Source: Rubrivivax sp. | GTDB lineage: Bacteria > Pseudomonadota > Gammaproteobacteria > Burkholderiales > Burkholderiaceae_C | DNA: 64,000 bases | NCBI GenBank assembly: GCA_040400915.1 | Contig: JBBAPI010000006.1 | Span: forward strand, 704 to 64,703 | Reading direction: 5' to 3' | Shown: piece by piece, positions 1 through 63,711 of the stretch | How the letters are laid out: every line of letters starts with the position of its first letter | How positions within the stretch are numbered: position 1 is the first letter of the stretch | Made by a program: the position numbers and the translations under genes | Notes under the pieces: model-generated | Database searches by the model: none | What the model saw: only the letters and a program-made list of their open reading frames with translations | What the model was told of the DNA's origin: nothing

Positions 1-1
1 G

Positions 2-538: not shown

Positions 539-571
539 TCGTTGCCAGTTCATGTGAAGTGGATGCCGGCC

Positions 572-2489: not shown

Positions 2490-2722
2490 GGCGCAAGAGC
2501 AAGAATGGGTTTTGCATCGACGTGGGGACCGTGGCGTATCGGTTGGGTATTATGATCTGAGGTGATCTCACGCCGGTCGAGCCTGCACCGGCCACGGCGG
2601 AAGCATCGCGCTTGCTGGGGAGCCGCCCAGCCCAAGCCGTGGCGCTCCCCTTGCCCACCATCCACGTCGCGTCGGTCGACGGCGTTGCCCGCCGCTGGAC
2701 GATTCGACACGTCTGCCGGAAC

Positions 2723-3877: not shown

Positions 3878-3900
3878 GCAGCCGGATCCAGCTGTTCAGC

Positions 3901-5891: not shown

Positions 5892-5926
5892 GATCGATAC
5901 TCGAATAAGAGGTAGATGGATGACGG

Positions 5927-6868: not shown

Positions 6869-7033
6869 GGGGTGGTGTGGGCAATGCCGTTGTTGTTGAC
6901 GGGCGCCGTGGGTGTGGCGCGGCGTTTGAGCCAACCCCGAACGGGGCGGCGGTCTTCGAAAGCGACTGGCTTGATTATCAGCCACTTGGTAGGTCTCGCC
7001 AGAACCCGGTCCACGGACGCGAAGTCTGCTGCG

Positions 7034-11734: not shown

Positions 11735-11742
11735 GGGCTGTG

Positions 11743-12282
11743 TCAGAAAGGAGAAGCGAAGTCGGCGAGTGCCGGATGCAGGGCGTCGCGTGCGGACAGC
11801 AGTGGCTGGGCGCACCCCCAGTCGAATCCGAAGCTGGCCCAATGCACGCCCGCATCGTGTTGAGGCGCGTGTTCGGAACTGGTCTTATAGACCATCAGCG
11901 TGTGGTCCTCCAGCGCCCGGAAGCCGTGCGCCACGCCGCGTGGCACCACAACGAGTGCGGGCTCGGCTGCATCCAGGTGCACGGCAGCTACACGGCCATA
12001 ACCTGGGCCGCGACGCAGATCCAGCAACACATCGTGGGCCGAGCCATTGGCGCAATACACCAGCTTGACGTGATCGTGCGGGGGCAACTGGAAATGCATG
12101 CCGCGCACCACGTCCCGGTGCGAGTACGAGTAGAACTCCTCGCGCAAGTCGAACGCCGGGACGCCCGGTATGGCTTCGAAGACGCTCTGCGCATAGGTTT
12201 TCACGAAGCTGCCGCGCGCATCGTCCAGGCGCTTCAGGCGCACAAGCCAGACGCCCGGCAGCAATTCATCGGTGAACTGCAT
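11743..12282 (-). CDS. RmlC-fold sugar epimerase, probable CDP-4-keto-3,6-dideoxyglucose 5-epimerase (AscE-like)
   Basis: Cupin motifs RGSFVKT, REEFYS, RGMHFQ, KLVYC and VAHGF; directly after rfbH. Confidence 0.82.
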   Translation of the reverse strand: MQFTDELLPGVWLVRLKRLDDARGSFVKTYAQSVFEAIPGVPAFDLREEFYSYSHRDVVRGMHFQLPPHDHVKLVYCANGSAHDVLLDLRRGPGYGRVAAVHLDAAEPALVVVPRGVAHGFRALEDHTLMVYKTSSEHAPQHDAGVHWASFGFDWGCAQPLLSARDALHPALADFASPF

Positions 12283-13631
12283 CAGAAGCCTATTCCCAGG
12301 AAGGTCTCGAGCTTTTCGACGATGTAATCCAGATGGGCCTCGGTCAGCGCAGGGAAGACACCAATCCAGAAAGTCTGGTTCATCACGATGTCCGTGTTCG
12401 TGAGTTCGCCGCTGATGCGGAAATTGCGACCGATCATGTACGGCTGGCGCACCAAGTTCCCCGCGAACAAAAGACGAGTCCCGATCTTGGACTGGTCAAG
12501 ATAGTTCAGCAGATCGACACGCCGTACGCCGCTTTCGGGTTTGAGCACCAAGGGGAAACCGAACCATGAGGGTTCGGAATTCGGCGTGGCCTCTGGCAGG
12601 TGCAAGAACTCTTTGCACGATTGCAAACGTTCCTTCAGGTATGCAAAGTTGTGGCGCCTGATTCGGATGAAATCATCCACGCGATCCATTTGTGCCAGTG
12701 CACAGGCCGCCTGCATGTCGGATATCTTCAGGTTGTAGCCGAGATGCGAATAGGTGTACTTGTGGTCGTAGCCCTCGGGCAGGTTGCCCAGCTTCCAGCA
12801 AAAGCGTTTGTTGCAGGTATTGTCCTTGCCGGGTGGGCAATAGCAGTCACGGCCCCAATCACGGAACGATTCGGCGATCAGCTTGAGTTCGGGGTTGTTC
12901 GTGAAGACAGCACCACCCTCGCCCATGGTGATGTGGTGCGCCGGATAGAAGCTCAGCGTACCGATGTCCCCGAACGTTCCGACCATCTGGCCGTTGTAGC
13001 GCGCACCCATGGCGTCGCAGCAATCCTCTATCAGCCACAGACCGTATTTCTTGCAGAGCGCCGTGACGACGTCCAGGTTGAAAGGGTTGCCCAGCGAATG
13101 CGCCAGCATGATGGCCCGCGTCTTGGGCGAGATGGCTGCTTCGATCAGGGAAGCGTCGATGTTGTGGGTTGCCAGATCGACGTCTACAAAGACCGGTACC
13201 GCGCCGAATTGCAGGATGGGATTGACCGTGGTCGGGAACCCTGCTGCAACACCGATGACCTCGTCTCCCGGTTTGATGGCGCGGTCACCCAGTCGAGGCG
13301 AAGTCAAGGTCGAAAAGGCCACCAGGTTGGCCGACGAACCCGAGTTGACAGTGATGAGATGTTTGACACCAAGAAACGCTGCCAATCTCGATTCGAACTC
13401 AGCATTGAATCGGCCGGTGGTGAGCCAGCCATCCAGCGAAGCCTCGACCATCAACTGCAATTCCTTGGTTCCGATGACCTTGCCGGACACAGGAACCACC
13501 GATTCGCCGGGCACGAAGGGTTGGGGTGCAAGCGTCAGCTCTGCATAGCGCCGCACCAGCTCTGCAATTTCGTTGCGCAATGCAGCGGCAGGGGGGGCCA
13601 CGTTGGCTGTTGTGGCGAAAACGGTACTCAT
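12282..13631 (-). CDS. rfbH: CDP-4-keto-6-deoxy-D-glucose 3-dehydrase E1 (DdhC/AscC/RfbH)
   Basis: [22 protein letters not shown] (His where aminotransferases have Lys), Fe-S Cys motif [13 protein letters not shown] and YDHKY. Confidence 0.95.
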
Positions 13632-14704
13632 TGAGGGTCCTTGTTGATCATGCAATGCGAATATTGGGCAATCTGCTCAAGGCACAGGGCGCGAACATCG
13701 TCGCCGGCCAACCAGGCGCGGTGCCAACGCACGATCTCGTGCAATGCCGTGTCGAGCGACCAGCGCGGCTGCCAGCCCAGACGGCTCGCGGCCTTGGAAA
13801 TGTCGAGCTTGAGGAAGTTGGCTTCGTGCGGCTGCGGCGCATCGTCGAGTTTCCAGCTGGCGCCCGCACCCCAGGCGTTGACCAGACGTTCGACGATCCA
13901 GTGCACGGGCCGAGCATCTTCGTCACGCGGGCCGAAATTCCAGCCTTCGGCGCAGGCCTGGCCTTCGGTGAAGAGTCGCTGCGCAAGCAAGAGATAGCCC
14001 GAGAGCGGTTCCAGAACGTGCTGCCAGGGCCGCGTGGCGTGTGGATTGCGAATGAGCACGGACTGACCGGCGCCCATGCCACGCAGGATGTCGGGCACCA
14101 GACGGTCCGCGGCCCAGTCGCCGCCGCCGATGACATTGCCTGCCCGGGCCGACGCCAGTGCTGCCCCCTGTTGGAAGAACGACTGGCGATAGGCCGCCGT
14201 CACGAGTTCCGAGCAACCCTTGCTGCTGCTGTACGGGTCGCGACCGCCCATCGGCTCGCTTTCACGGTAGCCCCAGACCCACTCCCTGTTTTCGTAGCAC
14301 TTGTCGGTGGTGACGTTGACGATCGCCCGCACAGTGCCTGCCCGGCGGGCTGCTTCGAGCACATGCACCGTCCCCATCACATTCGTGGCGTAGGTTTCCA
14401 CAGGCTCGGCGTACGAATACCGCACCAGCGGTTGAGCGGCCATGTGGATGACGATGTCAGGGCCGAAAGCCACCAGGCTGCTGCATACGGCCTCGAATTC
14501 GCGAATGTCGCCCAGTGTGGACACCATGCCTTCGGCGACCCGTGCTTGGGTAAAAAGCGCAGGCGTGGTCGGCGGTGACAAGGCGTAACCCTGCACTGAC
14601 GCGCCCAGCGATTGCAACCAAAGCGCGAGCCAACTGCCCTTGAAGCCGGTGTGGCCGGTCAGGAAAACGCGTTTGCCGCGCCAGAAATCGGCCTCGACGA
14701 CCAT
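13628..14704 (-). CDS. rfbG: CDP-glucose 4,6-dehydratase (DdhB)
   Basis: [43 protein letters not shown] and [13 protein letters not shown]. Confidence 0.95.
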
Positions 14705-14706
14705 GT

Positions 14707-15480
14707 TCAATCCCAATGCTTCCAGGGAGCCTTGCCGCTGGCCCACAGATCCTCAAGGTGGACCTTGTCGCGCAGCGTGTCCATCGGCTGCCAGAAACCG
14801 TTGTGTTCATAGGCCATCAATTCGCCCTGCGCCGCCAGGCCGACCAAGGGGGCTTGTTCCCAGATGCATGCGTCGCTGTCGATCAAGGTCAGCACCTTGG
14901 GTGAAAGCACGAAGAAACCGCCATTGATGCGACCACCGTCGCCGCGAGGCTTTTCCGTGAAGCTGCGCACCTGACTCTCGGCGATATCCAGCGCGCCGAA
15001 GCGGCCGGGTGGCAATGTGGCCGTCAGCGTGGCCTGCTTGCCGTGCTGGTGATGGAAGGCCAGCGTGGCCGCGATATCCAAATCGCTGACGCCGTCGCCA
15101 TAGGTGAAGAAGAAGGCCTCCTCGTCCTGCACATACTGCCGCACTCGGCCCAGCCGCCCGCCCGTCATCGACTGCTCGCCCGTGTCGACCAAGGTCACTT
15201 TCCAAGGCTCCGCGCGCTTGTGATGGACATCCATGCGGTTGGCCCGCATGTCGAAAGTCACGTCGGACGTGTGCAAGAAGTAGTTGGCAAAGTACTCCTT
15301 GATCATGTAGCCCTTGTACCCGCAGCAGATCACGAAGTCATTGCAGCCGTGGGCTGAATACATCTTCATGATGTGCCACAGGATCGGCTTGCCGCCGATT
15401 TCGACCATGGGCTTGGGCCGGCTCAGCGTTTCTTCGCTGAGCCTTGTGCCCAGGCCACCGGCAAGGATCACGGCTTTCAT
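14707..15480 (-). CDS. rfbF: Glucose-1-phosphate cytidylyltransferase (DdhA)
   Basis: [38 protein letters not shown] and [11 protein letters not shown]. Confidence 0.95.
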
Positions 15481-15511
15481 CGGCACGGTACTTTCTTCAG
15501 GAATATGAATG

Positions 15512-16501
15512 TCAAGATGAACTCACGAAAGCGTCTGAGAAGAATCGCCCTTTGGGTAACCCGGCAGTTTGCAGGACGACACGGGCTGACTGGATCATGG
15601 CATCGGAGCCGCAAGCGTAAACCACGGCCCGTTCGATGTCGGGTGCTGTTCGCATGAGCGCGTCTTGCACGTGGCCGCGTTCGCCAACCCACTCCCCGCC
15701 CGCTCGGGACAGAACGGGCGTGTGGTTCAGCCCAGGCAGGGCGCGGCCGGGGCTCCAGTAAAGATCGGCCTCCAAACGCCCCCCCCAAAACAATGCGACC
15801 GAGCGAGGTGCGCGCTCGGGTCCGTACGTTGCCAATTCGGCCAACATCGATTTGACTGGCGCAATGCCGGTACCGGTCGCCAGAAACACCAGGTCGAGAC
15901 CAGCCACGTTGCGCAGGAAGAAGGTGCCGAGCGGTCCACGCAGTCTCAGCAGGTCGTTGGGTTTCGCGCTGCCGAACCAGTAGTCACTCATCAGGCCGCC
16001 GGGCACTTGGCGGATTTGTATTTCCAGCTTTTCCGGCGCAGCCGAATCGCTGGCTACGGAATAACTGCGGGACACCCCTCCATGGCCGACGACGTCGATG
16101 TATTGGCCAGCACGGAATTTGAATCCTGATCCGGGCGGCAACCGCAGCGTCACGATCATGACGTCGGGGGCCGGTCTAGACAGGCCGTCGATGCGGCAAG
16201 GCAGCGTCTTGACGCTGATGCCGGCCAGACCGCTGAGGTCCTCGATGTCCAAACTCAGATCGGATGTGGCTTCGCGCGCGCAAGTGAGGATCATCCCGCC
16301 GGCGATCTCGTCTTCTCGCAGAGAGACCTCGGGCCGCAGTGGACGGGATTGGCCCGCAGTCACCTGGGCTTTGCAACTGCCGCACCGCCCAGTGCGGCAG
16401 CTGTGTTCGATGGCGAGAGAAGCCCGTTCTGCCGCTTCCAGGATCGAGGCACCCACCTCCGCTTGGAAGGTCTTGCCGTTCGATAGGGTCACGATACTCA
16501 T
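15512..16501 (-). CDS. rfbI: CDP-6-deoxy-delta3,4-glucoseen reductase E3 (DdhD/AscD): 2Fe-2S ferredoxin plus FAD/NAD reductase
   Basis: CRTGRCGSC...LTC ferredoxin motif, [15 protein letters not shown] and YACGS; first gene of the ddh block. Confidence 0.85.
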
Positions 16502-16623
16502 CGCAGTCTTCGGGTGTACTGAGGAAAAAGCAGCGTAGGTCCAGACTCTCCGAAAGCCTCTGCGCCGACGGACATGAAGTGCCGCATTCCCGGCTGACCA
16601 ACCTCATCCTGCACCACGGGCCT

Positions 16624-17781
16624 TCAGTCGATGGCCGTCTGGATGGCCGGCTTGTGCCGCTGCCCTCGCGTCACGACCCAGATCAGCAGCAGCACGAAGG
16701 CACCGGCCGTCACACCGAGGGCGGTCAGGGCCCGCTTGGGCCGGCTCTTCTTTTCGGGCGGCGTTGCGGGGTCGATCACCTGTATCAGTGCGCCTTCACG
16801 GGTTTCATCCAATCGCGCCAATTCGTATTGGCGCGAAAACAATTCGAACAAAGTTTCCTGATACTTGAATTCGCGGTATTTGCCGACGTAGTTCGGGCCT
16901 GCTCCCGTGTCGGGTGTCGCATCTTCTACCTTTGCCAACTCGCCCCGCAGCGCACCCAGAGTGGCCATTTGTTGCTGGACTTCGGGCGCGCTGTCGGTGA
17001 GGTTGCGACGCAGGGTCTGAACCTTCACCTCGGCGGCGGTGGCCTCGGCTTTGAGCTTGGCGTAGCCCTCGGCCGCGGCCTTCGGCTCGGCTTTCAATGC
17101 CCCTGTGCTGAAGCCGCTGTCCTGCAATGCCTGTTGTGCGCGAGCCAACTGATCGCGCGTCTGTTTCAGTTGAGCCTCGAAGAACACGCGCCGTTGCTGC
17201 GATTCGGACAGCGCCAGTCTTGCGGTCATGCGACGCAATTCATCGACATGCCGATTGGCCATGTCTGCGGCGCGCTGGGGGCTGACGTCGTCGACCTCGA
17301 TGGTGATCAGCCCGTCCTTCTTGCCAGCGCCGATGCGCACGTTCTTCGCCAACTCCTTGCGCGCTTCCACCCGGTACTTTTCGTCGTAGACCTTCAGCAG
17401 GTCGAACTGATCCACGATGCGGTCTGCCACCGTCGTGCTTTGCATCAGCGCCACGTACTGGTCGGCAGGACTCTTGATGCCAGCCGCTGCACCGGCCAGG
17501 CTCGACAGCGCACCCAGCGACGACAAGGCTGTTGCTGCAAGGCTCTGCTGCTGCTGAGGCGGCAGGAAGACCGTGCGTGCCGTGAAGGTGGGTGGGATCA
17601 GGTACGTGGCCGCCAGGCCCACAAGCCCGGCCAGCAAGGACCCTAAGACCAGCAGGATCCATCGCTCTCGCATGGGCCCCAGAACCTCGAGTGCTGCTCG
17701 CGCAGGTTCCTGGTCCGCCAAATCATCGCTCGGATGGGTCGCGGCATCCACCCTCGAGTCCGACGCATCGACCCTCGTCAT
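16624..17781 (-). CDS. wzz: Wzz-type chain-length determinant (polysaccharide co-polymerase)
   Basis: Two TM segments flank a coiled-coil region; C-terminal IQVIDPATPPEKKSRPKR; no tyrosine-kinase domain. Confidence 0.85.
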   Translation of the reverse strand: MTRVDASDSRVDAATHPSDDLADQEPARAALEVLGPMRERWILLVLGSLLAGLVGLAATYLIPPTFTARTVFLPPQQQQSLAATALSSLGALSSLAGAAAGIKSPADQYVALMQSTTVADRIVDQFDLLKVYDEKYRVEARKELAKNVRIGAGKKDGLITIEVDDVSPQRAADMANRHVDELRRMTARLALSESQQRRVFFEAQLKQTRDQLARAQQALQDSGFSTGALKAEPKAAAEGYAKLKAEATAAEVKVQTLRRNLTDSAPEVQQQMATLGALRGELAKVEDATPDTGAGPNYVGKYREFKYQETLFELFSRQYELARLDETREGALIQVIDPATPPEKKSRPKRALTALGVTAGAFVLLLIWVVTRGQRHKPAIQTAID

Positions 17782-17887
17782 GGGCAGCCCGCCGAAACAT
17801 CATCCCGTGGATGGAGGTCGGTTCGGATCGCTGCCAAACACGGCCTCATCGAGCCACTCGCATTTGCCTGCGCAGTCATGACCCGCA

Positions 17888-19738
17888 TCATCGGATGGCC
17901 GCTGTGGACTTGATGCCTGCGGCGCCCAGGCCCAACTGGTACAGGATCAGAGTCCAATCTCTGGCCGTCTGAAGTGCTGTCGACTTGTCCATTTCCTCGG
18001 GCACGAATACGCTGTCTCCGGGCAGTGCTGACATGGCCAGGGTGGACGCATCCCTGGAGAACCAGCCCGTGTTGTTCTGGCGGTTGCTGACAACCTGACC
18101 ATTGGCTCGAACAACGAACAGGCTGGCCTCGTCGGCGCCTTTGGTCGGTCCCCCGGCCAATCGAACGTAGTCGCTCAACGGCCGTGAACCCTGGTAGAGG
18201 TAACTGCCCGCGTTGAAGACGCTGCCGAAGACCCCGACGGCTGAGGGTTTGGGCGGAACGAAGACCTTGTCGCCGTCCTCCAGCAGCAGTTCCGGCAAAT
18301 CGCGCGCTTCGGGTGCGACTTGCAACACCACACGACCGGACGGCTGCAGGGCGCGCAGCCGGTCGACCAGGCGCGCGTTCGTCGCTGCCCGGGTCTGGGC
18401 GTTCAGCGCATCCTCCTGCGAGGTGACGCGTTGAGATGCACTGCTCTTGATCAGATCCGTCTCGAGGTCGCGCAGAGCCCGTTCGTAGTTTTCCTGCTGG
18501 GAAGCGCGCACGCTCACGCGCGTGAAGTTCGTGCCGAAGACGAACGCCGTCGTCGACAAGCCGCCGGCAGCCCGTATCGCATCGGCCAGGGTGCTTTCAG
18601 GCGGCAGCAGATACTCGCCCGGAACGGCGATCTCACCCTCGACACGGATGCGCTTGTTCTGGCGTTGCACGGACAGCGAAGAGTCGACCGCGCTGAAGAC
18701 GCGCACGACATCACCACTTTGCAAGGTCATGTTCTCGCTGGCCGGCAGCTTCAATTGCACGACACGCTGGTCGTTGCGGTTCTCCAGGCGCTCCAGCGAA
18801 AAGCGCGTTCGGTCAGCGACCTCCGTGAAGCCTCCGGCCATGCGCAGGACATCCTTGAGGACTTCGCCCTGCTTCAGCTCGAAAATGGCCTGTCGGTTGA
18901 CGCTGCCGCGCAGCGCGACTTGCGTACCGACGGGCAACACGTGGATCACATCGTCAGGTTCAACCAGCCGGTCGGACGTGCGGTCGCCGCGTTGCAACAG
19001 GTCGTAGAGGTCGAAGCTGGCAACCGTCTTGCCTTGACGCCGCAATTCGATTTGGCGGAAGCTGCCGGCGGCGGACGGGCCGCCTGCACGCATCGCAGCA
19101 CTCATGACCGTGGAAAGCCCTGCGACGGCGTAGGCACCGGGCCGCTGCACGAAGCCGGTGACGTACACCCGCACACCGCGTAACTTGCCCAGCGAGGCGC
19201 TGAGCTCGAAATTCTTGAACACCTGGGCCACCCGCCGGGTCAGCGTTTCGCGCAGGTCAGCGAAGCGCACGCCGGCCACCAAGGTTGGACCCACGCGAGG
19301 AATCGTCACCCGCCCGGCGCGGTCGACGGTCAGGCGCATGTCCGCATCCACCGAGCCCCACAGCGACACCTGTATCTCGTCGCCAGGCTGTATCACGTAT
19401 TCCGGCGGCACCAGCGGGCTGAAGTCGGCAGCGCCCGCAGCGAGTTCGTTGACCAGGTCCGAGCCGTAGCGCTGCAGACCGACGAAAGTTTCAAATTCAC
19501 CGGGCTTGGCCGCAGTTTGAACCGGCGCTGCGATGGTCGTGACGACGGGTTCTGCCAGCGGCTGGCGCAGCCGTACGGGCCCCCCAGTGGTGGTTGCGGC
19601 GTCTGCCGTACCGCTTGCCGACGAATTCGTCGACTGGGCCAGGGAAGCCAGAGTCGTCACGCACAGCGCGGCCGCGATGCAAAGGCGGCTGACGCTCGAT
19701 CGGCGGCCTGACAGGCGTGGCAGGGAAAACAGATGCAT
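17888..19738 (-). CDS. Multi-SLBB polysaccharide export protein (Wza/KpsD/OtnA-like)
   Basis: Signal-like N-terminus, EYVIQPGDEIQV...WG poly-export motif, repeated SLBB motifs (VYVTGFVQRPG, VEGEIAVPGEY, GVFGSVFNAG). Start ATG 19738 is uncertain. Confidence 0.85.
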   Translation of the reverse strand: MHLFSLPRLSGRRSSVSRLCIAAALCVTTLASLAQSTNSSASGTADAATTTGGPVRLRQPLAEPVVTTIAAPVQTAAKPGEFETFVGLQRYGSDLVNELAAGAADFSPLVPPEYVIQPGDEIQVSLWGSVDADMRLTVDRAGRVTIPRVGPTLVAGVRFADLRETLTRRVAQVFKNFELSASLGKLRGVRVYVTGFVQRPGAYAVAGLSTVMSAAMRAGGPSAAGSFRQIELRRQGKTVASFDLYDLLQRGDRTSDRLVEPDDVIHVLPVGTQVALRGSVNRQAIFELKQGEVLKDVLRMAGGFTEVADRTRFSLERLENRNDQRVVQLKLPASENMTLQSGDVVRVFSAVDSSLSVQRQNKRIRVEGEIAVPGEYLLPPESTLADAIRAAGGLSTTAFVFGTNFTRVSVRASQQENYERALRDLETDLIKSSASQRVTSQEDALNAQTRAATNARLVDRLRALQPSGRVVLQVAPEARDLPELLLEDGDKVFVPPKPSAVGVFGSVFNAGSYLYQGSRPLSDYVRLAGGPTKGADEASLFVVRANGQVVSNRQNNTGWFSRDASTLAMSALPGDSVFVPEEMDKSTALQTARDWTLILYQLGLGAAGIKSTAAIR

Positions 19739-19789
19739 CGGAAGATATGGCTCGTGGCCCTGAAGCGCGTGAGCAAACAAAAGACCACC

Positions 19790-19795
19790 ATTCTA
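19790..19795 (-). promoter_or_regulatory. Candidate -10 (TAGAAT) for the leftward SLBB-wzz-ddh transcript
   Basis: ATTCTA on +, about 50 bp upstream of the SLBB start; no clear -35. Confidence 0.35.
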
Positions 19796-19872
19796 CCGGC
19801 CGCCTTCTGCGCCTCGGAGCCTCATCAGGATGTACGAGCCATCACCTGATGATCATTGGTTAGACTTCATCC

Positions 19873-20991
19873 GTGCAATCCCTGATTTTCGCCTTCTTCG
19901 TCTCCATCCTGCTGACCGGCTGGGTCGTCCACGCCGCACGCCACGGCAAGGGCTCCGTGCTCGATCACGACACCTCCGGCCCGCAGAAATTTCACACACA
20001 GCCTGTGCCTCGCGTCGGCGGCATCGGCATCGTAGGCGGTGCCATCGCCGGGGCGGCCCTGCTGGCTTGGCTGAACCGCCCGGCCGGCGAACTGGCCGCG
20101 ATGCTGCTGCTCTGCGCCGCGCCGGCTTTCGCCGCCGGCTTGATCGAAGACCTGACCAAGCGCGTGAGCCCCGGCAAGCGGCTGCTGGCCACCGCGGTAT
20201 CGGCAGGGCTGGCGTTCTGGTTCCTGGGCGCGCAGATCACGCGCACCGACATTCCCGGCCTGGACACCCTGGTTTCCTTCGCTGCCGGCGCCTTGCTGGT
20301 CACGGTCTTTGCCGTGGCGGGCATCGCCAATTCGGTCAACATCATCGACGGCTTCAACGGCCTGTCTTCGATGTGCGTGATGATCATGCTGTCGGCTCTG
20401 GCCTATGTGGGCTTCCAGGTGAATGACGTTGCCGTCGCCACCCTGGCGCTGATGGGCATCGGCGCCGTGCTGGGCTTCTTCCTGTGGAATTTCCCGGCCG
20501 GGTTGATCTTTCTGGGCGATGGCGGCGCCTACTTTCTGGGCTTCTACGTGGCCGAGGTCTCCATCCTGCTGCTGGTGCGCAACCCCGGCATCTCGCCGCT
20601 GTTTCCGCTGCTGGTGTGCGTCTACCCCGTTTTCGAGACGCTGTTTTCCATCTACCGCCGACGTTTCCTGCGTTCGGTGCCGCCCAGCATGCCCGACGGT
20701 ATCCACCTGCATTCGCTGATCTACCGCCGCCTGCTGCGCTTGGCGGTCGGCGACCGCAACGCCCGCACGCTGACCCGGCGCAACTCGATGACCTCGCCTT
20801 TCCTGTGGCTGCTGTGCATGCTGTCGGTGGTGCCAGCCATCCTGTTTTGGGACAACACGGCGCTGATCGCCGGCGCGCTGGGCGTGTTCGCGCTGTCCTA
20901 CGTGGCGCTCTACTGGCGCATCGTGCGTTTCAAGTCGCCACGCTGGATGCGCATCCTGGCCAGCCGCCCGATGCCGCTGGGCAAGCGATAA
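19873..20991 (+). CDS. WecA/WbpL-type undecaprenyl-phosphate HexNAc-1-P transferase (MraY/GT4 family)
   Basis: PRVGGIGI, GLIEDL, NSVNIIDGFNGL, FLGDGGAY and HLH; polytopic; GTG start. Confidence 0.9.
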   Translation: MQSLIFAFFVSILLTGWVVHAARHGKGSVLDHDTSGPQKFHTQPVPRVGGIGIVGGAIAGAALLAWLNRPAGELAAMLLLCAAPAFAAGLIEDLTKRVSPGKRLLATAVSAGLAFWFLGAQITRTDIPGLDTLVSFAAGALLVTVFAVAGIANSVNIIDGFNGLSSMCVMIMLSALAYVGFQVNDVAVATLALMGIGAVLGFFLWNFPAGLIFLGDGGAYFLGFYVAEVSILLLVRNPGISPLFPLLVCVYPVFETLFSIYRRRFLRSVPPSMPDGIHLHSLIYRRLLRLAVGDRNARTLTRRNSMTSPFLWLLCMLSVVPAILFWDNTALIAGALGVFALSYVALYWRIVRFKSPRWMRILASRPMPLGKR

Positions 20992-53205: not shown

Positions 53206-53793
53206 TCACTTTGAGGTGTAGCCGCGGGCGTCCATGCAGGCATCGACGGCGCGCATGAAGACCGAGGAATCGTTCAGCGCGGCAGGCTGCGTGGTCGCCC
53301 AGCGGTTGCACTCCTGGCGGTCGGCTTCCAGCTGTTGCGCCGACTGGCCGTTGCGCGGGTAGATCACCGGTTCAGGCCGGCTCGGCGCCGCCGCCGGCGC
53401 GGGCGCGGGCGGTGCCGCATACACCTGCGGCGGCTGCTCGACGATGACCGTGGTCGGGCCGGGGTAGACCCAGGGCGAGGCCAGCAGCAAGCCCGCGCCG
53501 AGGCCCACACCCACACCCCAGCCACAGCACCAGCCGCCGGGGTAGCCGCCGTAGTAACCGCCGTAGTAGCGACCGCTGCGGCCGCCGTAGCCGCCGCCAT
53601 GGCCACCGCGATAGCCGACGTTGACAACCCCGACGGGGCCGCCGGTGCGGTAGACGGCCGGGCTCAGCGTGAGCGGGGCGCCGGCGCTGACGGCTGCCGA
53701 TACGCCATCGGCATGCGCCGCAGCCGCGATAGCGGTCAACACGGCAACGACCGCGCCCCGACGAAGGGTCGTAGACAGTGAAACTTTCAGCAT
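53206..53793 (-). CDS. Hypothetical secreted Gly/Tyr/Pro-rich protein with a C-terminal two-Cys domain
   Basis: Signal peptide ending AHA, GGYYGGY repeats, PAPAPA linker, YPRNGQSAQQLEADRQEC..WA...ACMDARGY; GGAGG RBS. Confidence 0.75.
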   Translation of the reverse strand: MLKVSLSTTLRRGAVVAVLTAIAAAAHADGVSAAVSAGAPLTLSPAVYRTGGPVGVVNVGYRGGHGGGYGGRSGRYYGGYYGGYPGGWCCGWGVGVGLGAGLLLASPWVYPGPTTVIVEQPPQVYAAPPAPAPAAAPSRPEPVIYPRNGQSAQQLEADRQECNRWATTQPAALNDSSVFMRAVDACMDARGYTSK

Positions 53794-53941
53794 GGCAAGC
53801 ACCTCCGGCAATCAAGCCGCCATGATGCACCCGCGACCACCCGGCCGCTTGACGGGTCTGCAAAGTATCGTGAACGGTGGGTGACGCCGGTGTCAGACCG
53901 GCCGACGAAGACGGCTGGCCGGCCCGTGCCGGACCGGAGCT

Positions 53942-55317: not shown

Positions 55318-55764
55318 TCAAGGCTTGGCGAAGTAGCGCACGCCGGGCAGGCCCTCGAAGTGGCTGTCCTGGGTCCAGAGTTCAGCATGGTGCAGTTGGG
55401 CGGTGGCGTAGATCAAGCTGTCGGCCAATGGCAGGCCGTTGACAGCGGCTGCCAGCGCCAGCGGCAAGTCGACAGACACCACTTGGCCGCGTTGCATCAG
55501 CGACAAAGCGGCGGCTGCCACCTCGTCACCCGCTTCACGCACCAGCTTCTTGGCCACTTCATAGACGGTGACGACAGGCACCACCAGGTGCTCGGGCTGC
55601 GCCAGCGCCTCGGCGTACAGGTCGGCCCGCGCGCTGTCGGTGAAGAATTCCAGCCAGCACGATGAGTCCAGTACGCGCAGGGTGGGCTGGGCGGCGGCCC
55701 TGGTCTTGGCCCTTGCCCGGGTCTGGGTGGGCGGCGCCATCGGCTTCGAGCCCGCCCCGGCCAT
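55318..55764 (-). CDS. vapC: VapC PIN-domain toxin (module 1)
   Basis: VLDSSCW, YEV, LADS and TQD acidic residues; TGATG coupling to the antitoxin. Confidence 0.9.
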   Translation of the reverse strand: MAGAGSKPMAPPTQTRARAKTRAAAQPTLRVLDSSCWLEFFTDSARADLYAEALAQPEHLVVPVVTVYEVAKKLVREAGDEVAAAALSLMQRGQVVSVDLPLALAAAVNGLPLADSLIYATAQLHHAELWTQDSHFEGLPGVRYFAKP

Positions 55765-55973
55765 CAGGCGATCCGATCGGCGTCGCGTGCGATGTCGGGG
55801 TTGATGCCCCGTGCGATGCCGCGCAATTCGGCTGCGCTGCGCAACGGCATCAGGCGCAGGCCGCCGTTGAAGTCCACCACCATCAACTTGGTGCCGGCCT
55901 GCAGCTTCAGCCGTTGGCGCACGGCCAGCGGGATGACGACCTGGAATTTCGGCGAAACGGTGACGGTGTCCAT
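55764..55973 (-). CDS. AbrB/MazE/SpoVT-family antitoxin (module 1)
   Basis: 69 aa; VTVSPKFQVVIPLAVRQRLKL.AG. Confidence 0.9.
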   Translation of the reverse strand: MDTVTVSPKFQVVIPLAVRQRLKLQAGTKLMVVDFNGGLRLMPLRSAAELRGIARGINPDIARDADRIA

Positions 55974-55974
55974 G

Positions 55975-56015
55975 TCGATCAATGTAGCGTATGCCGAGTA
56001 TTTGATCGATGTAAA
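55975..56015 (-). promoter_or_regulatory. Promoter/operator of TA module 1
   Basis: TTTACA(56015-56010)-N18-TACGCT(55991-55986) on -. Perfect 8-bp inverted repeat TCGATCAA(55975-82)/TTGATCGA(56002-09). Confidence 0.55.
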
Positions 56016-56028
56016 TTCGCTGGCCAAG

Positions 56029-58087: not shown

Positions 58088-58513
58088 TCAGTTCATGGGC
58101 CAGGCTGACAGTGGCTGCAGCCGGCCCAGCGCTGCGGCCTTGCGGCAATAGGCTTCGTCGGCGGTGACCAGCACGGCGTCTTCGGTTTCCAGCGCCAGCG
58201 CGTGGTACAGCGTGTCGAACAGGTGGTGGTTCAGCTGCTGGCTGAGCTGCATGGCGCGCCAATAGACCCGGTCATCGTCCCGCGAACGCAGGCCCAAGGC
58301 GCGCAAATTCGCCAGGTGCCGTTCCATCCGATCCGGTGTCTCGCGCGCCAGCACGGCGCACACCTCGGCCTGGAAGTGCGGCGGTTGCAGCAACTGGTGT
58401 CGGCCGTCGACATGGCCCTGCAGGATGTCCAGCGCGGCGGCGCCATCGTCTTCGCCGGAGCGTTCATGAAAGAACCACTTCAGAGCGACGCTGGCGTCGA
58501 CCACCAGCTTCAC
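58088..58513 (-). CDS. vapC: VapC PIN-domain toxin (module 2)
   Basis: [23 protein letters not shown] and VTAD; GTG start overlaps the antitoxin stop. Confidence 0.88.
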
Positions 58514-58743
58514 GGACGCCCAGCCCGGCGCGCAGCGGCCAGTTGTCTCGAACTGCGGACCGGCGCCGTGCTGCGCATGTCCAGGATGCTGGCCAGGGCG
58601 GCCTCGCGCAGGCGCTGCTCCTGCGCCAGCGCGATGGCCGTGCGCAACAGTTGCGTCAATACCGCGCTCTTGTTCTGGCCCTCGAAGGTGGCGTTGAACG
58701 CTTGTTTCACATCCTCGGGGACACTGAAATTCATCGTGGCCAT
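58510..58743 (-). CDS. Ribbon-helix-helix type antitoxin (module 2)
   Basis: 77 aa; MATMNFSVPEDVKQAF...NKSAVLTQLL; directly upstream of the PIN gene. Confidence 0.8.
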   Translation of the reverse strand: MATMNFSVPEDVKQAFNATFEGQNKSAVLTQLLRTAIALAQEQRLREAALASILDMRSTAPVRSSRQLAAARRAGRP

Positions 58744-58812: not shown

Positions 58813-59115
58813 TCAGGTGATGGGTTGGTGCACGGTCACCAGTTTGGTGCCATCGGGGAAGGTGGCTTCGACCTGGATTTCGCTGACGATTTCCGGCACG
58901 CCGTCCATCACGTCGTCGCGGCCCAGGACGGTTTTGCCGTCGCTCATCAACTGGGCCACGGTCTTGCCGTCGCGGGCCCCTTCCAGGATGCCGCAGCTGA
59001 TGAAGGCGATGGCCTCGGGCACGTTCAGCTTCAAGCCGCGCGCCCGTCGGCGTTCGGCCAGCAGGCCGGCAGTGAAGAGCAGCAGTTTGTCTTTTTCGCG
59101 GGGTGTCAGGTCCAT
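58813..59115 (-). CDS. ureA: Urease gamma subunit
   Basis: [12 protein letters not shown]...RGLKLN.PEA...[14 protein letters not shown]. Confidence 0.99.
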
Positions 59116-59201
59116 GCTGGGGGCTCATTCACGTCGGGTGCCAGCATCCTAACCGTCGACCCTGGGCCGGTGGCGCAGTCCGTGCATCATCGCCACCCAG
59201 C

Positions 59202-62200
59202 ATGAGTGCCTTGCCCCTTTCGGCCCCAGCATCGAGCGACGCCCCGCCGGCGCCGCAGCAGCGCGTCATCAAGGTCCGCCGCGACTACAACGCCTGGGTC
59301 GCCAGCGAGAGCCTGGAAGACTACGCGCTGCGCTTCACGCCGCGCAGCTTCCGCAAGTGGAGCACTTGGCGTGTGGCCAACACCGCCATCGGCGGGGCGG
59401 CCTCCTTTCTGGTTCTGGAAGCCGTGGGCGCCACGCTGCTGCTGCAGTTCGGTTTCATCAACGCCTTCTGGGCCGTTCTGGCCACCGCGCTGATCATCTT
59501 CGCCGCCGGCCTGCCGATCAGCGTCTACGCCGCGCGCCACGGGCTGGACATGGACCTGCTGACGCGCGGCGCCGGCTTCGGCTACATCGGCAGCACCATC
59601 ACCAGCCTGATCTACGCCAGCTTCACCTTCATCTTTTTCGCGCTGGAAGCGGCCATCATGGCCTACGCGCTGGAACTGGCCTGGGGCATCCCGCCGACCT
59701 GGGGCTACCTGCTGTGCGCGCTGGTGGTCATCCCGCTGGTCACCCACGGCGTCACGGCCATCAGCCAGCTGCAGGTGTGGACGCAGCCGCTGTGGCTGGC
59801 GCTGCTGGTGTTGCCCTACGGCTACGTCTTCCAGGCGCATCCGGGCTTGGTCGGCGAACTGCGCGTCTACGCCGGTGCAAGCGGGCAGGGTGGTGGCTTC
59901 AACCCGCTGCTCTTCGGCGGCGCGCTGACGGTGGGCATCGCGCTGATCACGCAGATGGGTGAGCAGGCCGACTACCTGCGCTTCATGCCCGAGAAGACCG
60001 TGGCCACGCGCGGCCGCTGGTGGCTGGGCGTGTTGATCGGCGGCCCCGGCTGGGTCATCCCCGGCGTGTTGAAGATGCTGGGCGGCATGCTGCTGGCCTA
60101 CCTGGCGCTGACGCTGGCCGTGCCGGCCGACCGCGCGGTCGACCCCAACCAGATGTACCTGGCGGCCTACGAACTGGTCTTTCCGCACTACACCTGGGCG
60201 GTGGCGGCCACGGCTTTGCTGGTCATCGTCAGCCAGCTGAAGATCAACGTGACCAACGCCTACGCCGGCAGCCTGGCCTGGTCGAACTTCTTCGCCCGCG
60301 TCACGCACAGCCACCCCGGCCGCGTCGTCTGGGTGGTGTTCAACACCCTGATCGCGCTGATGCTGATGGAGCTGGAGGTCTTCAAGGCCATCGCCGGCGT
60401 GCTGGGCCTGTACAGCAACATCGCCATCAGCTGGATCATGGCCGTGGTGGCCGATCTGGTGGTCAACAAGCCGCTGGGCTGGTCGCCCAAGGGCATCGAA
60501 TTCAAGCGGGCGCACCTCTACGACATCAACCCGGTGGGCGTGGGTGCCATGGGCTTGGCTTCGGTGCTGTCCATTGCGGCCTACCTGGGCGTCTTCGGCG
60601 CGATGGCGCAGGCCTTCTCGGCGGTGATCGCGATGGCGGTGGCCTTCGTCACGTCGCCGCTGATCGCCTGGGCGACCCAGGGCCGCTACTACATCGCCAG
60701 AACATCCGTTGACCCCAAGGCCGCCGCAAGCGGCGACCGTCCCCCGAGGGGAGCGATGCATCCTTGGGGCGGCCCGGCGGATGCATCCGACGACGGCGCC
60801 TACCTGGGCGCGACCAGCGGCGTGCTGAAGCTGCGCCGCTGCGTGATCTGCGAGCGCGACTACGAAGGCGAAGACATGGCGCAGTGCCCGGCCTACGGCG
60901 GGCCGATCTGCAGCCTGTGCTGCGCGCTGGACGCCCGCTGCCACGACCTGTGCAAGCCCGAACCCGCGCGCGCGCCGTGGCAGCTGACGGCGCTGCTGCG
61001 CCGCCTGACGCCACGCGCCTGGTGGCCGCAGCTGGACACGGGGCTGGGCCGCTACCTGCTGCTGATGGCCGTCGTGGCGCCCGCGCTGGCCGGTCTGCTG
61101 AGCCTGCTCTACCAGGCCGAACTGCGCCACCTGGGCGATGCGGCCGGGGCGCTGGCCCCGGCACTGCGCGCCGGCTTCATCAAGGCCTGGTGCGGGCTGG
61201 TGCTGGTGGCCGGGGTGATCGGCTGGTGGGGGGTCCTGACGCAGATCAGCCGCCGCGTGGCGCAGGAGGAAAGCAACCGCCAGACCCAAGCCCTGATGCG
61301 CGAGATCGATGCCCACCACCGGACGGACGAAGCCCTGCAGCGCGCCAAGCAGGCTTCGGAGGCCGCCAACCAGGCCAAGACGCGCTACATCAGCGCCGTC
61401 AGCCACGAACTGCGCACACCGCTGAACAGCATCCTGGGCTATGCGCAACTGCTCGACGAAGACCCGACCTTGCCGGTGCACCGCAAGCAGGCGGTGGGCG
61501 TGATCCGGCGCGGCGGCGAACACCTGCTGAGCCTGATCGAAGGCACGCTGGACATCGCGCGCATCGAAGGCGGCAAGCTGGCGCTGGAGCCCAAGCCGAT
61601 GCGCCTGCACGAGGCGCTGCGCCAGATCGTGCAGATGTTCGAGCTGCAGGCGGCCAGCAAGGGCCTGCGCTTCGAGCACCACATCGAGGGCGCGCCCGCG
61701 CTGGTCAAGGCCGACGAGCGGCGGTTGACGCAGATCCTGATCAACGTGCTGGGCAATGCCGTCAAGTTCACGCCGGCCGGCCGCGTCAGCTTCCGCGCCC
61801 TGCCTGTGCGTGGCATGACCGTGTTCGAGATCGAGGACACCGGGCCGGGCATCGCCGCGCAGGACCTGGAACGCATCTTCGAACCCTTCTCGCGCGGCGG
61901 TGCTGCGGCCGGTGCGCCGAGTGGTGGCACGGGACTGGGCCTGACCATCGCCAAGATGCTGACCGACCTGATGGGCGGCGAGATGACGGTGTCGTCGCGC
62001 ACCGCGGCCGAGGGCGTCGGCATGTCCGGCACCTTGTTCCGCGTGCGCCTCTTCCTGCCCGAACTGCAAGGTGCAAGAGCCCCGCAGCCCTTGCCCTTGC
62101 GTGCCGGCTACGCGGGCGCGCGGCGCCGTGTGCTGGTGGTGGACAACGAAGAAATCGACCGCACGCTGCTGGCCGCCCGGCTGCAGGCTGTCGGCTTCGA

Positions 62201-62762
62201 CGTGCTGCAGGCCAGTTCCGGCCACGCCGCCCTGGCCCTGCTGCATGAACACGCCGTGAGCCTGACGGCCGTCGACGCCATCCTGATGGACCTGGCCATG
62301 CCCGGCATCGACGGCTGGGAAACCATCCGCACGCTGCGCCGCCAGCGGCTGAGCAGCGCGCCGGTGGCCATCGTTTCGGCCAACGCCTTCGACAAGGGGC
62401 TGGACAACGATGTCGGCACCACCCCGGCCGACTTCATCACCAAGCCGGTTCGCTTCGACGAACTGCTGGACTGGCTGGGCCGCGGCCTGGGGCTGCAATG
62501 GCTGGCCCAGCCGCCCGAACCGCCGCCCACGCCGACGCCGTCCGATGCGCCGCGCCCCACGCGCACCCAGTTGCTGGCGCTGCGCGAGGTGGTGAACCTG
62601 GGCTACCCGCGCGGCGTGCAGCGGCTGCTGGACCAGATCGAGGCCGAAAGCCCTGACTGCACGGCCTGGCTGGCGCCGCTGCGCGCGCTGGCCGCCGGCT
62701 TCCAGTTCGACCGCATCCCACCGCTGATCGACGCCGCGCTGGCGCAAGTCGATGTCCACTGA
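59202..62762 (+). CDS. Hybrid sensor histidine kinase with N-terminal permease-like (NCS1/APC-type) domain, Cys-rich linker, HisKA, HATPase and REC
   Basis: About 12 hydrophobic segments in the first ~490 aa; 8-Cys motif; H box SHELRTPL, N box GNAVKFT, G1 EDTGPGI, F box IFEPF, G2 GTGLGL; receiver LMDLAMP...TKP. Confidence 0.92.
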   Translation: MSALPLSAPASSDAPPAPQQRVIKVRRDYNAWVASESLEDYALRFTPRSFRKWSTWRVANTAIGGAASFLVLEAVGATLLLQFGFINAFWAVLATALIIFAAGLPISVYAARHGLDMDLLTRGAGFGYIGSTITSLIYASFTFIFFALEAAIMAYALELAWGIPPTWGYLLCALVVIPLVTHGVTAISQLQVWTQPLWLALLVLPYGYVFQAHPGLVGELRVYAGASGQGGGFNPLLFGGALTVGIALITQMGEQADYLRFMPEKTVATRGRWWLGVLIGGPGWVIPGVLKMLGGMLLAYLALTLAVPADRAVDPNQMYLAAYELVFPHYTWAVAATALLVIVSQLKINVTNAYAGSLAWSNFFARVTHSHPGRVVWVVFNTLIALMLMELEVFKAIAGVLGLYSNIAISWIMAVVADLVVNKPLGWSPKGIEFKRAHLYDINPVGVGAMGLASVLSIAAYLGVFGAMAQAFSAVIAMAVAFVTSPLIAWATQGRYYIARTSVDPKAAASGDRPPRGAMHPWGGPADASDDGAYLGATSGVLKLRRCVICERDYEGEDMAQCPAYGGPICSLCCALDARCHDLCKPEPARAPWQLTALLRRLTPRAWWPQLDTGLGRYLLLMAVVAPALAGLLSLLYQAELRHLGDAAGALAPALRAGFIKAWCGLVLVAGVIGWWGVLTQISRRVAQEESNRQTQALMREIDAHHRTDEALQRAKQASEAANQAKTRYISAVSHELRTPLNSILGYAQLLDEDPTLPVHRKQAVGVIRRGGEHLLSLIEGTLDIARIEGGKLALEPKPMRLHEALRQIVQMFELQAASKGLRFEHHIEGAPALVKADERRLTQILINVLGNAVKFTPAGRVSFRALPVRGMTVFEIEDTGPGIAAQDLERIFEPFSRGGAAAGAPSGGTGLGLTIAKMLTDLMGGEMTVSSRTAAEGVGMSGTLFRVRLFLPELQGARAPQPLPLRAGYAGARRRVLVVDNEEIDRTLLAARLQAVGFDVLQASSGHAALALLHEHAVSLTAVDAILMDLAMPGIDGWETIRTLRRQRLSSAPVAIVSANAFDKGLDNDVGTTPADFITKPVRFDELLDWLGRGLGLQWLAQPPEPPPTPTPSDAPRPTRTQLLALREVVNLGYPRGVQRLLDQIEAESPDCTAWLAPLRALAAGFQFDRIPPLIDAALAQVDVH

Positions 62763-63711
62763 AGGTTCGCCGCGCGCCGCGTTGGTTCCCGAACGCGCCA
62801 GCAGCGCCGGTCTGGTGCTGATCGTCGACGACGTGCCCGACAACCTGGCCGTGCTGCACGACGCGCTGGACGAAGCCGGCTACACCGTGCTGGTGGCCAC
62901 CGACGGCGCCACGGCGCTGCAGCGCGCCGCGCAGGCCGAACCCGACATCGTGCTGCTGGACGCGGTGATGCCGGGCATGGACGGCTTTGAAGTGGCGCGG
63001 CGCCTGAAGGCCGGGCCCGAGACGGCGCACATCCCCATCGTTTTCATGACCGGCCTGACCGAAACCGAACACGTGCTGGCGGCCTTCGAAGCCGGTGGCG
63101 TCGACTACGTCACCAAGCCCATACGCCCGCCCGAGGTGCTGGCCCGCATGGCCGCCCACATGCAGGCTGCGCGCCAGGCCCGGCAGGCGCGCAATGCGCT
63201 GGACGCCTACGGCCACGCCACCATCGCGGTGCGTGTGGAGGGTGATCGCGCGCGCTTGACCTGGCAGACGCCGCTGGCTCGGCGCTGGCTGCCGGCCTAC
63301 TTCGAGTGCGTGCCCGGCGAGGTGCCCGCCCCGCTGCTGGCGTGGTTGCAAGGCGTTGCGGCGGGGCGTGAGGCGCGGCCGCTGTCCAGCGCGCGGGGCG
63401 CCCAGCAACTGGTCTGCACCTTGCAAGGCCGCACGCCCGACGAAGACTGGCTGGTCGTGCTGCGCGAGGTCAGCGACGCCGCCACCGTGGAAGCCACGAT
63501 GCAGGCCCTGGGCCTGACGCTGCGCGAGAGCGAGGTGCTCTACTGGGTGGTCAAGGGCAAGACCAACCGCGACATCGGTGACATCCTGGGCAGCAGCCCG
63601 GCCACCGTGAAGAAGCACCTGGAACGGGTCTATGAGAAGTTGGGTGTCGAGACGCGCACCGCGGCCGCCGGCGTGGCCCTGCAGCGGGTACGGGCTCTGG
63701 CGCAGACCTGA
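62752..63711 (+). CDS. Response regulator, REC plus LuxR-type HTH
   Basis: LIVDD, LLDAVMP and VTKP; C-terminal LTLRESEVLYWVVKGKTNRDIG.IL..SPATVKKHLE; overlaps the kinase stop by 11 bp. Confidence 0.93.
   Translation: MSTEGSPRAALVPERASSAGLVLIVDDVPDNLAVLHDALDEAGYTVLVATDGATALQRAAQAEPDIVLLDAVMPGMDGFEVARRLKAGPETAHIPIVFMTGLTETEHVLAAFEAGGVDYVTKPIRPPEVLARMAAHMQAARQARQARNALDAYGHATIAVRVEGDRARLTWQTPLARRWLPAYFECVPGEVPAPLLAWLQGVAAGREARPLSSARGAQQLVCTLQGRTPDEDWLVVLREVSDAATVEATMQALGLTLRESEVLYWVVKGKTNRDIGDILGSSPATVKKHLERVYEKLGVETRTAAAGVALQRVRALAQT

Follow-up and report, generated by a model that had tools for sequence, protein, structure and literature searches.

Near the end of a 64,000-nucleotide stretch of Rubrivivax sp. 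DNA (contig JBBAPI010000006.1; the whole stretch is hereafter called the window), a hybrid sensor histidine kinase and a LuxR-type response regulator are encoded head-to-head with a urease operon. Judged from its modeled structure, the input domain of the kinase is a divergent NCS1-type permease fold. We hold, at slightly better than even confidence, that nitrogen limitation acting through sigma54 turns on urease together with the sensor pair, that urea is sensed by the NCS1-like domain, and that the phosphorylated regulator then turns on urtABCDE, the genes of high-affinity urea uptake. A tie of the kinase-plus-LuxR branch of this family to urea and short-chain amides, and of the window's own clade to urea, is well supported by gene neighborhoods. 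The intergenic region that the kinase gene shares with ureA (59116-59201) is probably not where the regulator acts in this genome.

Organization of the Kinase-Regulator Pair

The features of the locus, in the order in which they lie in the window, are as follows.

58813-59115, minus strand: ureA, coding for the gamma subunit of urease and opening the divergent urease operon (Pfam Urease_gamma, E 4e-46)
59116-59201, no strand: divergent intergenic region between ureA and the kinase gene, 86 bp, read directly from the sequence
59128-59143, minus strand: sigma54-type element facing ureA, TGGCACCCGACGTGAA, ending 12 nt from the ureA ATG (alignment with relatives)
59171-59186, plus strand: sigma54-type -24/-12 element facing the kinase gene, TGGCGCAGTCCGTGCA, which fits GG-N10-GC (consensus match, position kept in relatives)
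59202-62762, plus strand: hybrid sensor histidine kinase, 1186 residues (ATG at 59202, start chosen to fit homologues)
59268-60686, plus strand: NCS1-like (CodB/Mhp1-like) 12-helix permease-fold domain, residues 23-495 (AlphaFold, Foldseek)
60822-60971, plus strand: Cys module, residues 541-590, C-x2-C-x11-C-x7-C-x2-CC-x5-C-x3-C (alignment, AlphaFold)
61041-61247, plus strand: two hydrophobic helices, residues 618-636 and 664-682, leading into a coiled coil before HisKA (hydropathy)
61377-61574, plus strand: HisKA, residues 726-791, with H-box SHELRTP and His735 (Pfam E 5e-17; His from alignment)
61713-62057, plus strand: HATPase_c, residues 838-952 (Pfam E 3e-24)
62130-62471, plus strand: fused REC, residues 977-1090, with Asp1030 (Pfam E 2e-17; Asp from alignment)
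62562-62759, plus strand: conserved C-terminal four-helix domain, residues 1121-1186 (AlphaFold helices 1121-1183)
62752-63711, plus strand: response regulator, 319 residues (ATG at 62752, 11-nt overlap with the kinase stop)

The open reading frame (ORF) of the kinase opens at a GTG at 59103, upstream of the chosen ATG. An earlier note on this DNA, made from the sequence alone, had described the kinase as a permease-like domain followed by a Cys module, two transmembrane segments, HisKA, HATPase and REC, coupled to a REC-LuxR regulator and sharing an 86-bp divergent region with ureA. This description stands: Pfam, hydropathy and AlphaFold place the domains where the note had them, the coordinates of the divergent region are correct, the regulator has the REC and LuxR domains and its gene overlaps that of the kinase, and the pair is conserved, with a regulator downstream of the kinase in 57/65 related loci. 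(Here and below, gene-context counts were made on 80 loci from Burkholderiales genomes.) The note named no characterized member of the family, and our literature searches found none either. It did not mention the C-terminal helical domain of the kinase, the long middle segment of the regulator or the two toxin-antitoxin pairs in the urease operon.

The Input Domain is a Divergent NCS1-Type Fold

The motifs that the earlier note had quoted lie at residues 24-45 (KVRRDYNAWVASESLEDYALRF) and 352-364 (NAYAGSLAWSNFF) of the kinase, and about 12 helices are found in residues 55-491 by hydropathy and in the AlphaFold model. Modeled from a 23-sequence alignment, residues 1-520 form twelve membrane helices with a predicted local distance difference test score (pLDDT) of 88.8 and a predicted template-modeling (TM) score of 0.87. 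In a Foldseek search of the PDB the best match was CodB (7QOA, E 3.8e-9, TM-scores 0.61/0.77), followed by Mhp1 (2JLN at E 1e-8, 4D1A and 2X79; range E 1e-8 to 2e-6). The top five matches are all CodB or Mhp1, with TM-scores of 0.61-0.78 and identities of 16-19%, and other LeuT-fold families (Nramp, SGLT, SiaT, AdiC, and DUR3) rank below NCS1. When the family profile was aligned by hhalign with E. coli CodB, a modest signal was obtained (probability 60%, E 8.8e-5, 150 columns, 25% identity), spanning transmembrane helices 1-4 and including an LL-x-R-x-x-FG-x-x-GS stretch common to both.

The structural search thus agrees with the transporter-like N-terminal domain that the earlier note had proposed and that searches of Pfam and of PDB sequences do not see. 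Residues 1-700 had no match in Pfam, NCBIfam or PDB sequence searches, residues 1-533 had no Pfam match even at E 10, Transp_cyt_pur (PF02133) included, and a PDB sequence search with the family profile gave no match. PF02133 was touched by 1/23 diverse homologues (E 7e-4), and at NCBI and JGI homologues already carry the name "purine-cytosine permease family." Since the closest fold is that of solved NCS1 members and the Transp_cyt_pur gathering score is not reached, we describe the domain as NCS1-like and not as an NCS1 member. The kinase joins a secondary-transporter fold and HisKA-HATPase in one polypeptide, as CbrA/CrbS-type fusions do; an SLC5/SSS transporter domain followed by STAC was not found in it, neither SSF nor STAC being matched in Pfam and the SGLT and SiaT structures standing lower in the Foldseek ranking.

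Across 69 orthologues the mean identity of the permease domain is 80%, compared with 84% for HisKA and 57% for HATPase, and many polar residues are invariant in the helices that form the LeuT-fold binding site. The invariant polar residues include E73, E149, Q251, E254, Q255, D257, Q345, K347, N349, N352, S357, and N362. That the domain is nearly as conserved as HisKA, and well above HATPase, argues for a working ligand site and not a relic.

Cysteine Module, Kinase Core, and Regulator

A disordered linker (residues 502-540) separates the permease domain from the Cys module, whose eight cysteines (C547, C550, C562, C570, C573, C574, C580, and C584) are invariant across 28 sequences. The module is predicted to form a small beta-rich fold of four short strands (pLDDT 83-90) and had no Pfam or PDB match. 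Its motif was found in 73/82 long representatives of the family, stand-alone permease forms included. The C-terminus of NCS1 proteins is cytoplasmic, so that the module would lie in the cytoplasm, and it probably binds a metal, likely zinc.

Behind the two hydrophobic segments the protein has the make-up of a hybrid kinase, namely HisKA with its conserved His, HATPase, and a fused receiver with its conserved Asp. The four-helix domain at the C-terminus had no Pfam match; it is similar in size to a histidine phosphotransfer (Hpt) domain, an assignment that we rejected as the alignment shows no conserved His in it. Pfam found no Hpt domain elsewhere in the kinase, and no Hpt gene was seen in the neighborhoods, so the fused receiver is probably a competing or modulating sink for phosphate.

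The regulator consists of a REC domain (residues 22-132, Pfam E 2e-27) and a GerE/LuxR helix-turn-helix (residues 255-308, Pfam E 5e-16), with the acidic pocket D26/D27, the phospho-acceptor Asp70, T100 and K122 read from the translation. It is accordingly a response regulator of the NarL/FixJ (LuxR) type, and it scores against NCBIfam MctR. About 120 residues (133-254; 63148-63513) lie between its two domains and matched nothing in Pfam or among the PDB sequences; regulators homologous to it are likewise long, at 300-312 residues.

Gene Neighborhoods of the Family

A search with kinase residues 1-583 returned more than 5580 homologous proteins, and an exhaustive search with residues 1-520 gave 1712 representatives at the 50% identity level. 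Among 30 long representatives, which were not chosen by architecture, the outputs were HATPase (18), REC (13), Hpt (5), GGDEF (4), EAL (3), and SpoIIE (3), with PAS/GAF also present, while stand-alone forms of 546-576 residues consist of the permease and the Cys module only. The varied outputs and the stand-alone forms together indicate that the permease-plus-Cys unit is a modular sensor. At one locus (L081, protein P0130) it is fused to PAS/GAF-GGDEF-EAL in a protein of 1554 residues. The SpoIIE-fused representatives showed no obvious urea context.

Among the 80 Burkholderiales loci the recurrent order is ureG-ureF-ureE-ureC-ureB-ureA followed by the divergent kinase-regulator pair. The start of ureA lies within 600 bp of the kinase in 59/80 loci, ureC is divergent within 4 kb in 49/54 loci with sufficient flanking sequence, and urtABCDE, confirmed by Pfam, follows within 10 kb downstream in 17/58. 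Distant members have similar neighbors. P0205 (42% identity) is divergent from urtABCDE-ureAB-ureC, and P0181 (47%) has urtABCDE on its divergent side and ureDABC downstream. P0257 (36%) stands between an amide-type ATP-binding cassette (ABC) importer, which is transcribed divergently, and a CN_hydrolase gene downstream, and P0175 (47%) adjoins two CN_hydrolases and an AmiB-like AAA protein in an arrangement like that of amiE-amiB. One stand-alone form has Amidase, FmdA_AmdA and CN_hydrolase genes as its neighbors.

The earlier note had stated that kinases of this type recur near urea and amide uptake genes, and these neighborhoods bear out a tie to urea and amide genes for close and distant members alike. 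Of the ligands that it had offered (urea, ureides or amides), urea and amides fit this context; ureides do not, as no allantoin, purine or pyrimidine catabolic genes were found among the recurrent neighbors.

Divergent Sigma54-Type Elements between ureA and the Kinase Gene

No sigma70-type promoter was found in the gap (59116-59201), in line with the observation of the earlier note that the ureA promoter lacks a -35. The same note had looked for sigma54 sites without finding any, and had urease activated through the 86-bp region independently of sigma54; here our results differ. The kinase-facing element TGGCGCAGTCCGTGCA has the GG-N10-GC spacing at a position that is kept in relatives. The ureA-facing site keeps an intact -24 half (TGGCAC) and lacks the GC of the -12 half; TGGCAC...TGCT is present there in 9/9 close relatives. 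When the pattern TGGCAC-N5-TTGCA was sought in 60 orthologous gaps, matches faced the kinase in 51/60, ureA in 50/60, and both genes in 43/60, against about 1/60 in shuffled controls, in which the double arrangement was practically absent. Within the window the kinase-side pattern alone is not significant (5 matches vs. 3.6 expected), and its weight comes from the conservation of its position.

The window's kinase-side element ends 15 nt before the ATG at 59202. In about a dozen loci (including L002, L007, L008, L016, L026, L060, and L063) the -12 elements end 11-14 nt from the ureA ATG, and in L060 the two elements stand back to back (positions 14-29 and 30-45), so closely that an enhancer could not fit in the middle.

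Sigma54 promoters require an AAA+ enhancer-binding protein, for which a LuxR-type regulator cannot substitute. The sigma54 promoters seem to control the kinase-regulator system and not to be controlled by it. No gene for a bacterial enhancer-binding protein recurred in the neighborhoods.

A Palindrome Upstream of urtA is the Candidate Operator

The palindrome TACGCC-N4-GGCGTA lies upstream of urtA in 18/18 loci in which urtA was called. In most of the 24 aligned loci, a -10-like hexamer (CAGAAT, TAGCCT, TACAGT, and similar), read by eye, starts 24 nt past the palindrome, a spacing that would put the palindrome center near -43, where a class II activator sits when the promoter has no -35. We also considered a sigma54 promoter ahead of urtA and rejected it, as the 18 loci contain only about two borderline matches.

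Variants of the form TACG-N8-CGTA occur in the regulatory gaps of four distant systems: between urtA and the kinase in L088 (as ATACGCA-N4-TGCGTAT) and in L093, at two places in L091 (between transporter and kinase, and upstream of an amidase), and upstream of amidase genes in L085. These variant-bearing gaps contain no sigma54 match; L093 carries one upstream of ureD. The loose form of the pattern is expected 0.1 times per 64 kb.

In a reverse test, 80 metagenome loci were picked by the palindrome alone. In 46/80 of them urtA starts 44-232 nt downstream on the same strand, and of those urtA loci whose upstream sequence extends for 3 kb or more, 12/22 have the kinase-regulator pair there; about 30/80 of the loci picked are fortuitous hits in unrelated genomes or have no sequence downstream. 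At one locus (L096:2-22) the palindrome and CAGAAT, at the usual spacing, precede a 565-residue protein with a signal-like start instead of urtA, and its gene may be another member of the regulon.

The palindrome travels with the regulator family across 36-88% sensor identity, which makes it the best candidate for the operator of the regulator. It also resembles NarL 7-2-7 sites in being an inverted repeat with a TAC-starting half-site. On this sequence evidence, TACGCC-N4-GGCGTA is likely the regulator's operator.

In the window, the palindrome was found neither in the gap nor in the 290 bp after the regulator, with up to two mismatches allowed, and the ureA-kinase gaps of the nearest relatives do not have it. 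The window stops 290 bp past the regulator, and in close relatives urtA lies a few kilobases further on; together with the absence of the palindrome here, this places the likely target outside the window. A one-mismatch palindrome does stand in the ureA-kinase gap of about 11 related loci, which are of the Acidovorax and Ramlibacter types, so that direct input at ureA, or autoregulation, may exist in other lineages. In the Acidovorax-type loci L019, L020, L024, and L034 this copy, TACGCCAGAGGGCGAA, lies 5 bp upstream of the ureA-side -24 element, with equal spacing in all four.

Proposed Mechanism

In the scheme that we favor, nitrogen limitation would switch on the urease and the kinase-regulator operons through the two divergent sigma54-type promoters in their shared gap. 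An enhancer-binding protein, which was not seen here and for which NtrC is the obvious candidate, would act at these promoters. Urea would bind in, or pass through, the permease-like domain, and the resulting conformational change would reach the kinase core by way of the Cys module, on the cytoplasmic side, and of the helices, with phosphate then moving from His735 to Asp70 of the regulator. A dimer of the phosphorylated regulator would bind the 16-bp palindrome near -43 of sigma70-type promoters that have no -35. Its main target in the window's clade would be urtABCDE, outside the window, and in distant members it would be amide-transporter and amidase genes.

Several points weigh against this scheme. 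We infer the ligand from the neighboring genes only, and no urea context was seen around those family members whose outputs are GGDEF/EAL or Hpt. The sigma54 sites are consensus matches, and on the ureA side the -12 half is degenerate in the window (TGAA, vs. TGCT in nine close relatives); the elements also stand so near the start codons that both mRNAs would have hardly any leader, or none. No copy of the palindrome exists in the whole 64-kb window, with up to two mismatches allowed and also in the form TACG-N8-CGTA. Its link to the regulator is one of association, joined to a likeness to the NarL 7-2-7 sites, and the kinase-regulator pair was not adjacent in 10/22 of the urtA loci of the reverse test that have sufficient upstream sequence. 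The AlphaFold monomer draws residues 614-753 as a single helix without a hairpin, so that a hairpin of the two hydrophobic segments is deduced from topology only. Finally, the public runs that hold the window sequence are all DNA metagenomes (freshwater), and no RNA runs were found among them.

Alternative Explanations

A sub-question of the same scheme is whether the kinase is a true transceptor, in which the permease domain still transports urea or an amide and the kinase reports the flux or the transport cycle, as has been proposed for CbrA, in contrast to a receptor that has lost transport and only binds its ligand. The stand-alone permease-plus-Cys proteins in amidase and formamidase clusters, where a transporter would be expected, speak for this possibility, as do the HisKA-like conservation of the permease core and the invariant polar residues in its binding-site helices. 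These genomes already have UrtABCDE for uptake, however, and we regard continued transport by the domain as unlikely, though a serious contender.

Alternatively, the regulator could bind 59116-59201 and, with urea, ureides or amides as the signal, directly activate a sigma70-type ureA promoter that has no -35 and does not depend on sigma54. The head-to-head arrangement kept in 59/80 loci would suit such a mechanism, as would a gap in which no sigma70 promoter with a -35 is found and the one-mismatch palindromes of about 11 loci, which in the Acidovorax type lie close to the ureA-side -24 element. Yet the gaps of the window and of its nearest relatives have no palindrome, the orthologous gaps hold divergent sigma54-type promoters that need an AAA+ activator and not a LuxR-type regulator, and the well-conserved operator candidate sits at urtA. 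We find no support in this genome for a direct control of ureA by way of the 86-bp gap, and we give it little credence.

The signal might also be a metal or redox cue, such as the nickel supply for urease, received by the eight-Cys module or through an Nramp-like metal path. Urease requires nickel, the eight cysteines are invariant, and Nramp/MntH appears at rank 6 of the Foldseek list (E 5e-6). NCS1 proteins match better than Nramp, however, and members of the family also stand beside nickel-independent amidases, beside CN_hydrolases and beside urea/amide ABC importers. The gene-order strings showed no recurrent gene for a nickel transporter or of the nikR type, and the Cys module would most simply be a structural zinc site; a metal or redox signal is thus very improbable. 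Least probable of all, by a little, is a nucleobase or ureide sensor (for allantoin, hydantoin or cytosine) with urea use as a downstream consequence, for although the best structural matches carry cytosine and hydantoins and annotation pipelines name homologues after purine-cytosine permeases, identity to CodB and Mhp1 is only 16-19%, PF02133 is unmatched, and the recurrent neighbors are urease, urt and amidase genes, without genes of allantoin, purine or pyrimidine catabolism.

Other Features of the Window

The urease operon runs in the order ureA-[toxin-antitoxin pair]-ureB-ureC-[toxin-antitoxin pair]-ureE-ureF-[Gly-rich ORF]-ureG and extends to 52483; the identities of ureB, ureC, ureE, ureF, and ureG were confirmed by Pfam. 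Both toxin-antitoxin pairs are of the PIN(VapC) type and lie on the minus strand. The first, between ureA and ureB (58088-58743), comprises a PIN gene (58088-58513) and a 77-residue ORF (58510-58743), and the second, between ureC and ureE (55318-56027), comprises a PIN gene (55318-55764) and a MazE/AbrB-type antitoxin gene (55764-56027). As a rule such pairs are not in the gene-order strings of relatives. A 201-residue ORF between ureF and ureG (53206-53811, minus strand) has a signal-like N-terminus and a Gly/Tyr-rich stretch, GYRGGHGGGYGGRSGRYYGGYYGGYPGGWCCGWG, and had no Pfam match.

The ureABCEFG cluster beside the kinase does not include ureD in the window or in the 80 related loci; in distant loci and in Dechloromonas, ureD is placed after the regulator or after urtE. 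The G+C content is 0.59-0.64 in positions 1-20000 of the window and 0.64-0.74 beyond.

Relation to Known Systems

The nearest parallel in design is CrbS/CrbR (also MxtR/ErdR and MctS/MctR), in which a hybrid kinase fused to SLC5 works with a LuxR-type regulator to control the use of acetate. Both systems join a LeuT-fold transporter domain to HisKA-HATPase-REC in one polypeptide, have a REC-LuxR partner and serve the use of a small nutrient. The kinase of the window differs from CrbS in that its input is NCS1-like and not SLC5/SSS, that neither STAC nor PAS was found in it, and that its genes are linked to urea and amides; it has in addition the eight-Cys module, the two hydrophobic helices and the His-less C-terminal domain. 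CbrA/CbrB of Pseudomonas, the textbook case of a possible bacterial transceptor, likewise has a transporter-fused sensor kinase, but CbrA carries an SLC5 domain and its partner is an NtrC-type sigma54 activator, whereas the partner here is of the LuxR type.

In Ks-Amt5 (PDB 6EU6), an ammonium-transporter fold is fused to a histidine kinase (PMC12918730). As here, the fold of a nitrogen-compound transporter is reused as kinase input, but Ks-Amt5 has an Amt fold in place of LeuT/NCS1, responds to ammonium, and is not known to have a partner regulator. CodB (7QOA) and Mhp1 (2JLN), the closest proteins by fold, differ from the kinase in that the latter is fused to signaling domains and stands in a urea/amide context. 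The regulator, like others of the NarL/FixJ family, has REC and GerE, and is unlike them in its insert of about 120 residues between REC and the helix-turn-helix.

Other regulators that adjust the breakdown of urea or amides to the substrate are UreR, an AraC-family, urea-binding activator of plasmid and Proteus urease operons, and AmiC/AmiR, the binding-protein/antiterminator pair for amide control in Pseudomonas. UreR is a soluble one-component regulator; neither it nor AmiC/AmiR is a membrane two-component system, and neither has domains homologous to those found here. GrtK/GrtR of Burkholderia glumae was considered as a relative and rejected, its kinase being unrelated and PilS-like. The genome papers of Ectopseudomonas guguanensis and Dechloromonas aromatica list a hybrid kinase and a LuxR or CheY-like regulator beside urtABCDE but do not study the pair.

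Implications

With its NCS1-like input and its Cys module, the kinase adds a new variant to the transporter-fused sensor kinases. We further propose, tentatively and with rather less than even confidence, that the permease-plus-eight-Cys module derives from NCS1 and is a receptor for urea and short-chain amides of a kind not described before. By this proposal the pair in the window would be the first dedicated bacterial urea-sensing two-component system, with an operator that is predictable at urtABCDE. Thousands of proteins would use this module as the input to kinase, c-di-GMP (GGDEF/EAL) and SpoIIE-phosphatase outputs, and the stand-alone forms would be an unrecognized class of urea/amide permeases.

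Urea is a major nitrogen currency in soils, waters, fertilized fields, and animal hosts. To our knowledge, UreR is the only well-understood urea-responsive regulator in bacteria, and urease is elsewhere ascribed to general nitrogen control. If the proposal holds, it would explain how many Betaproteobacteria, and distant lineages as well, decide, beyond their control by NtrC and sigma54, to make an expensive high-affinity importer of urea. Next to SLC5 and Amt, a third transporter fold would be known among bacterial transceptors. The sensor module found in more than 1700 sequence clusters would receive a name and a testable ligand, and the kinase, the regulator and the 16-bp operator would together make a ready-made biosensor for urea or amides.

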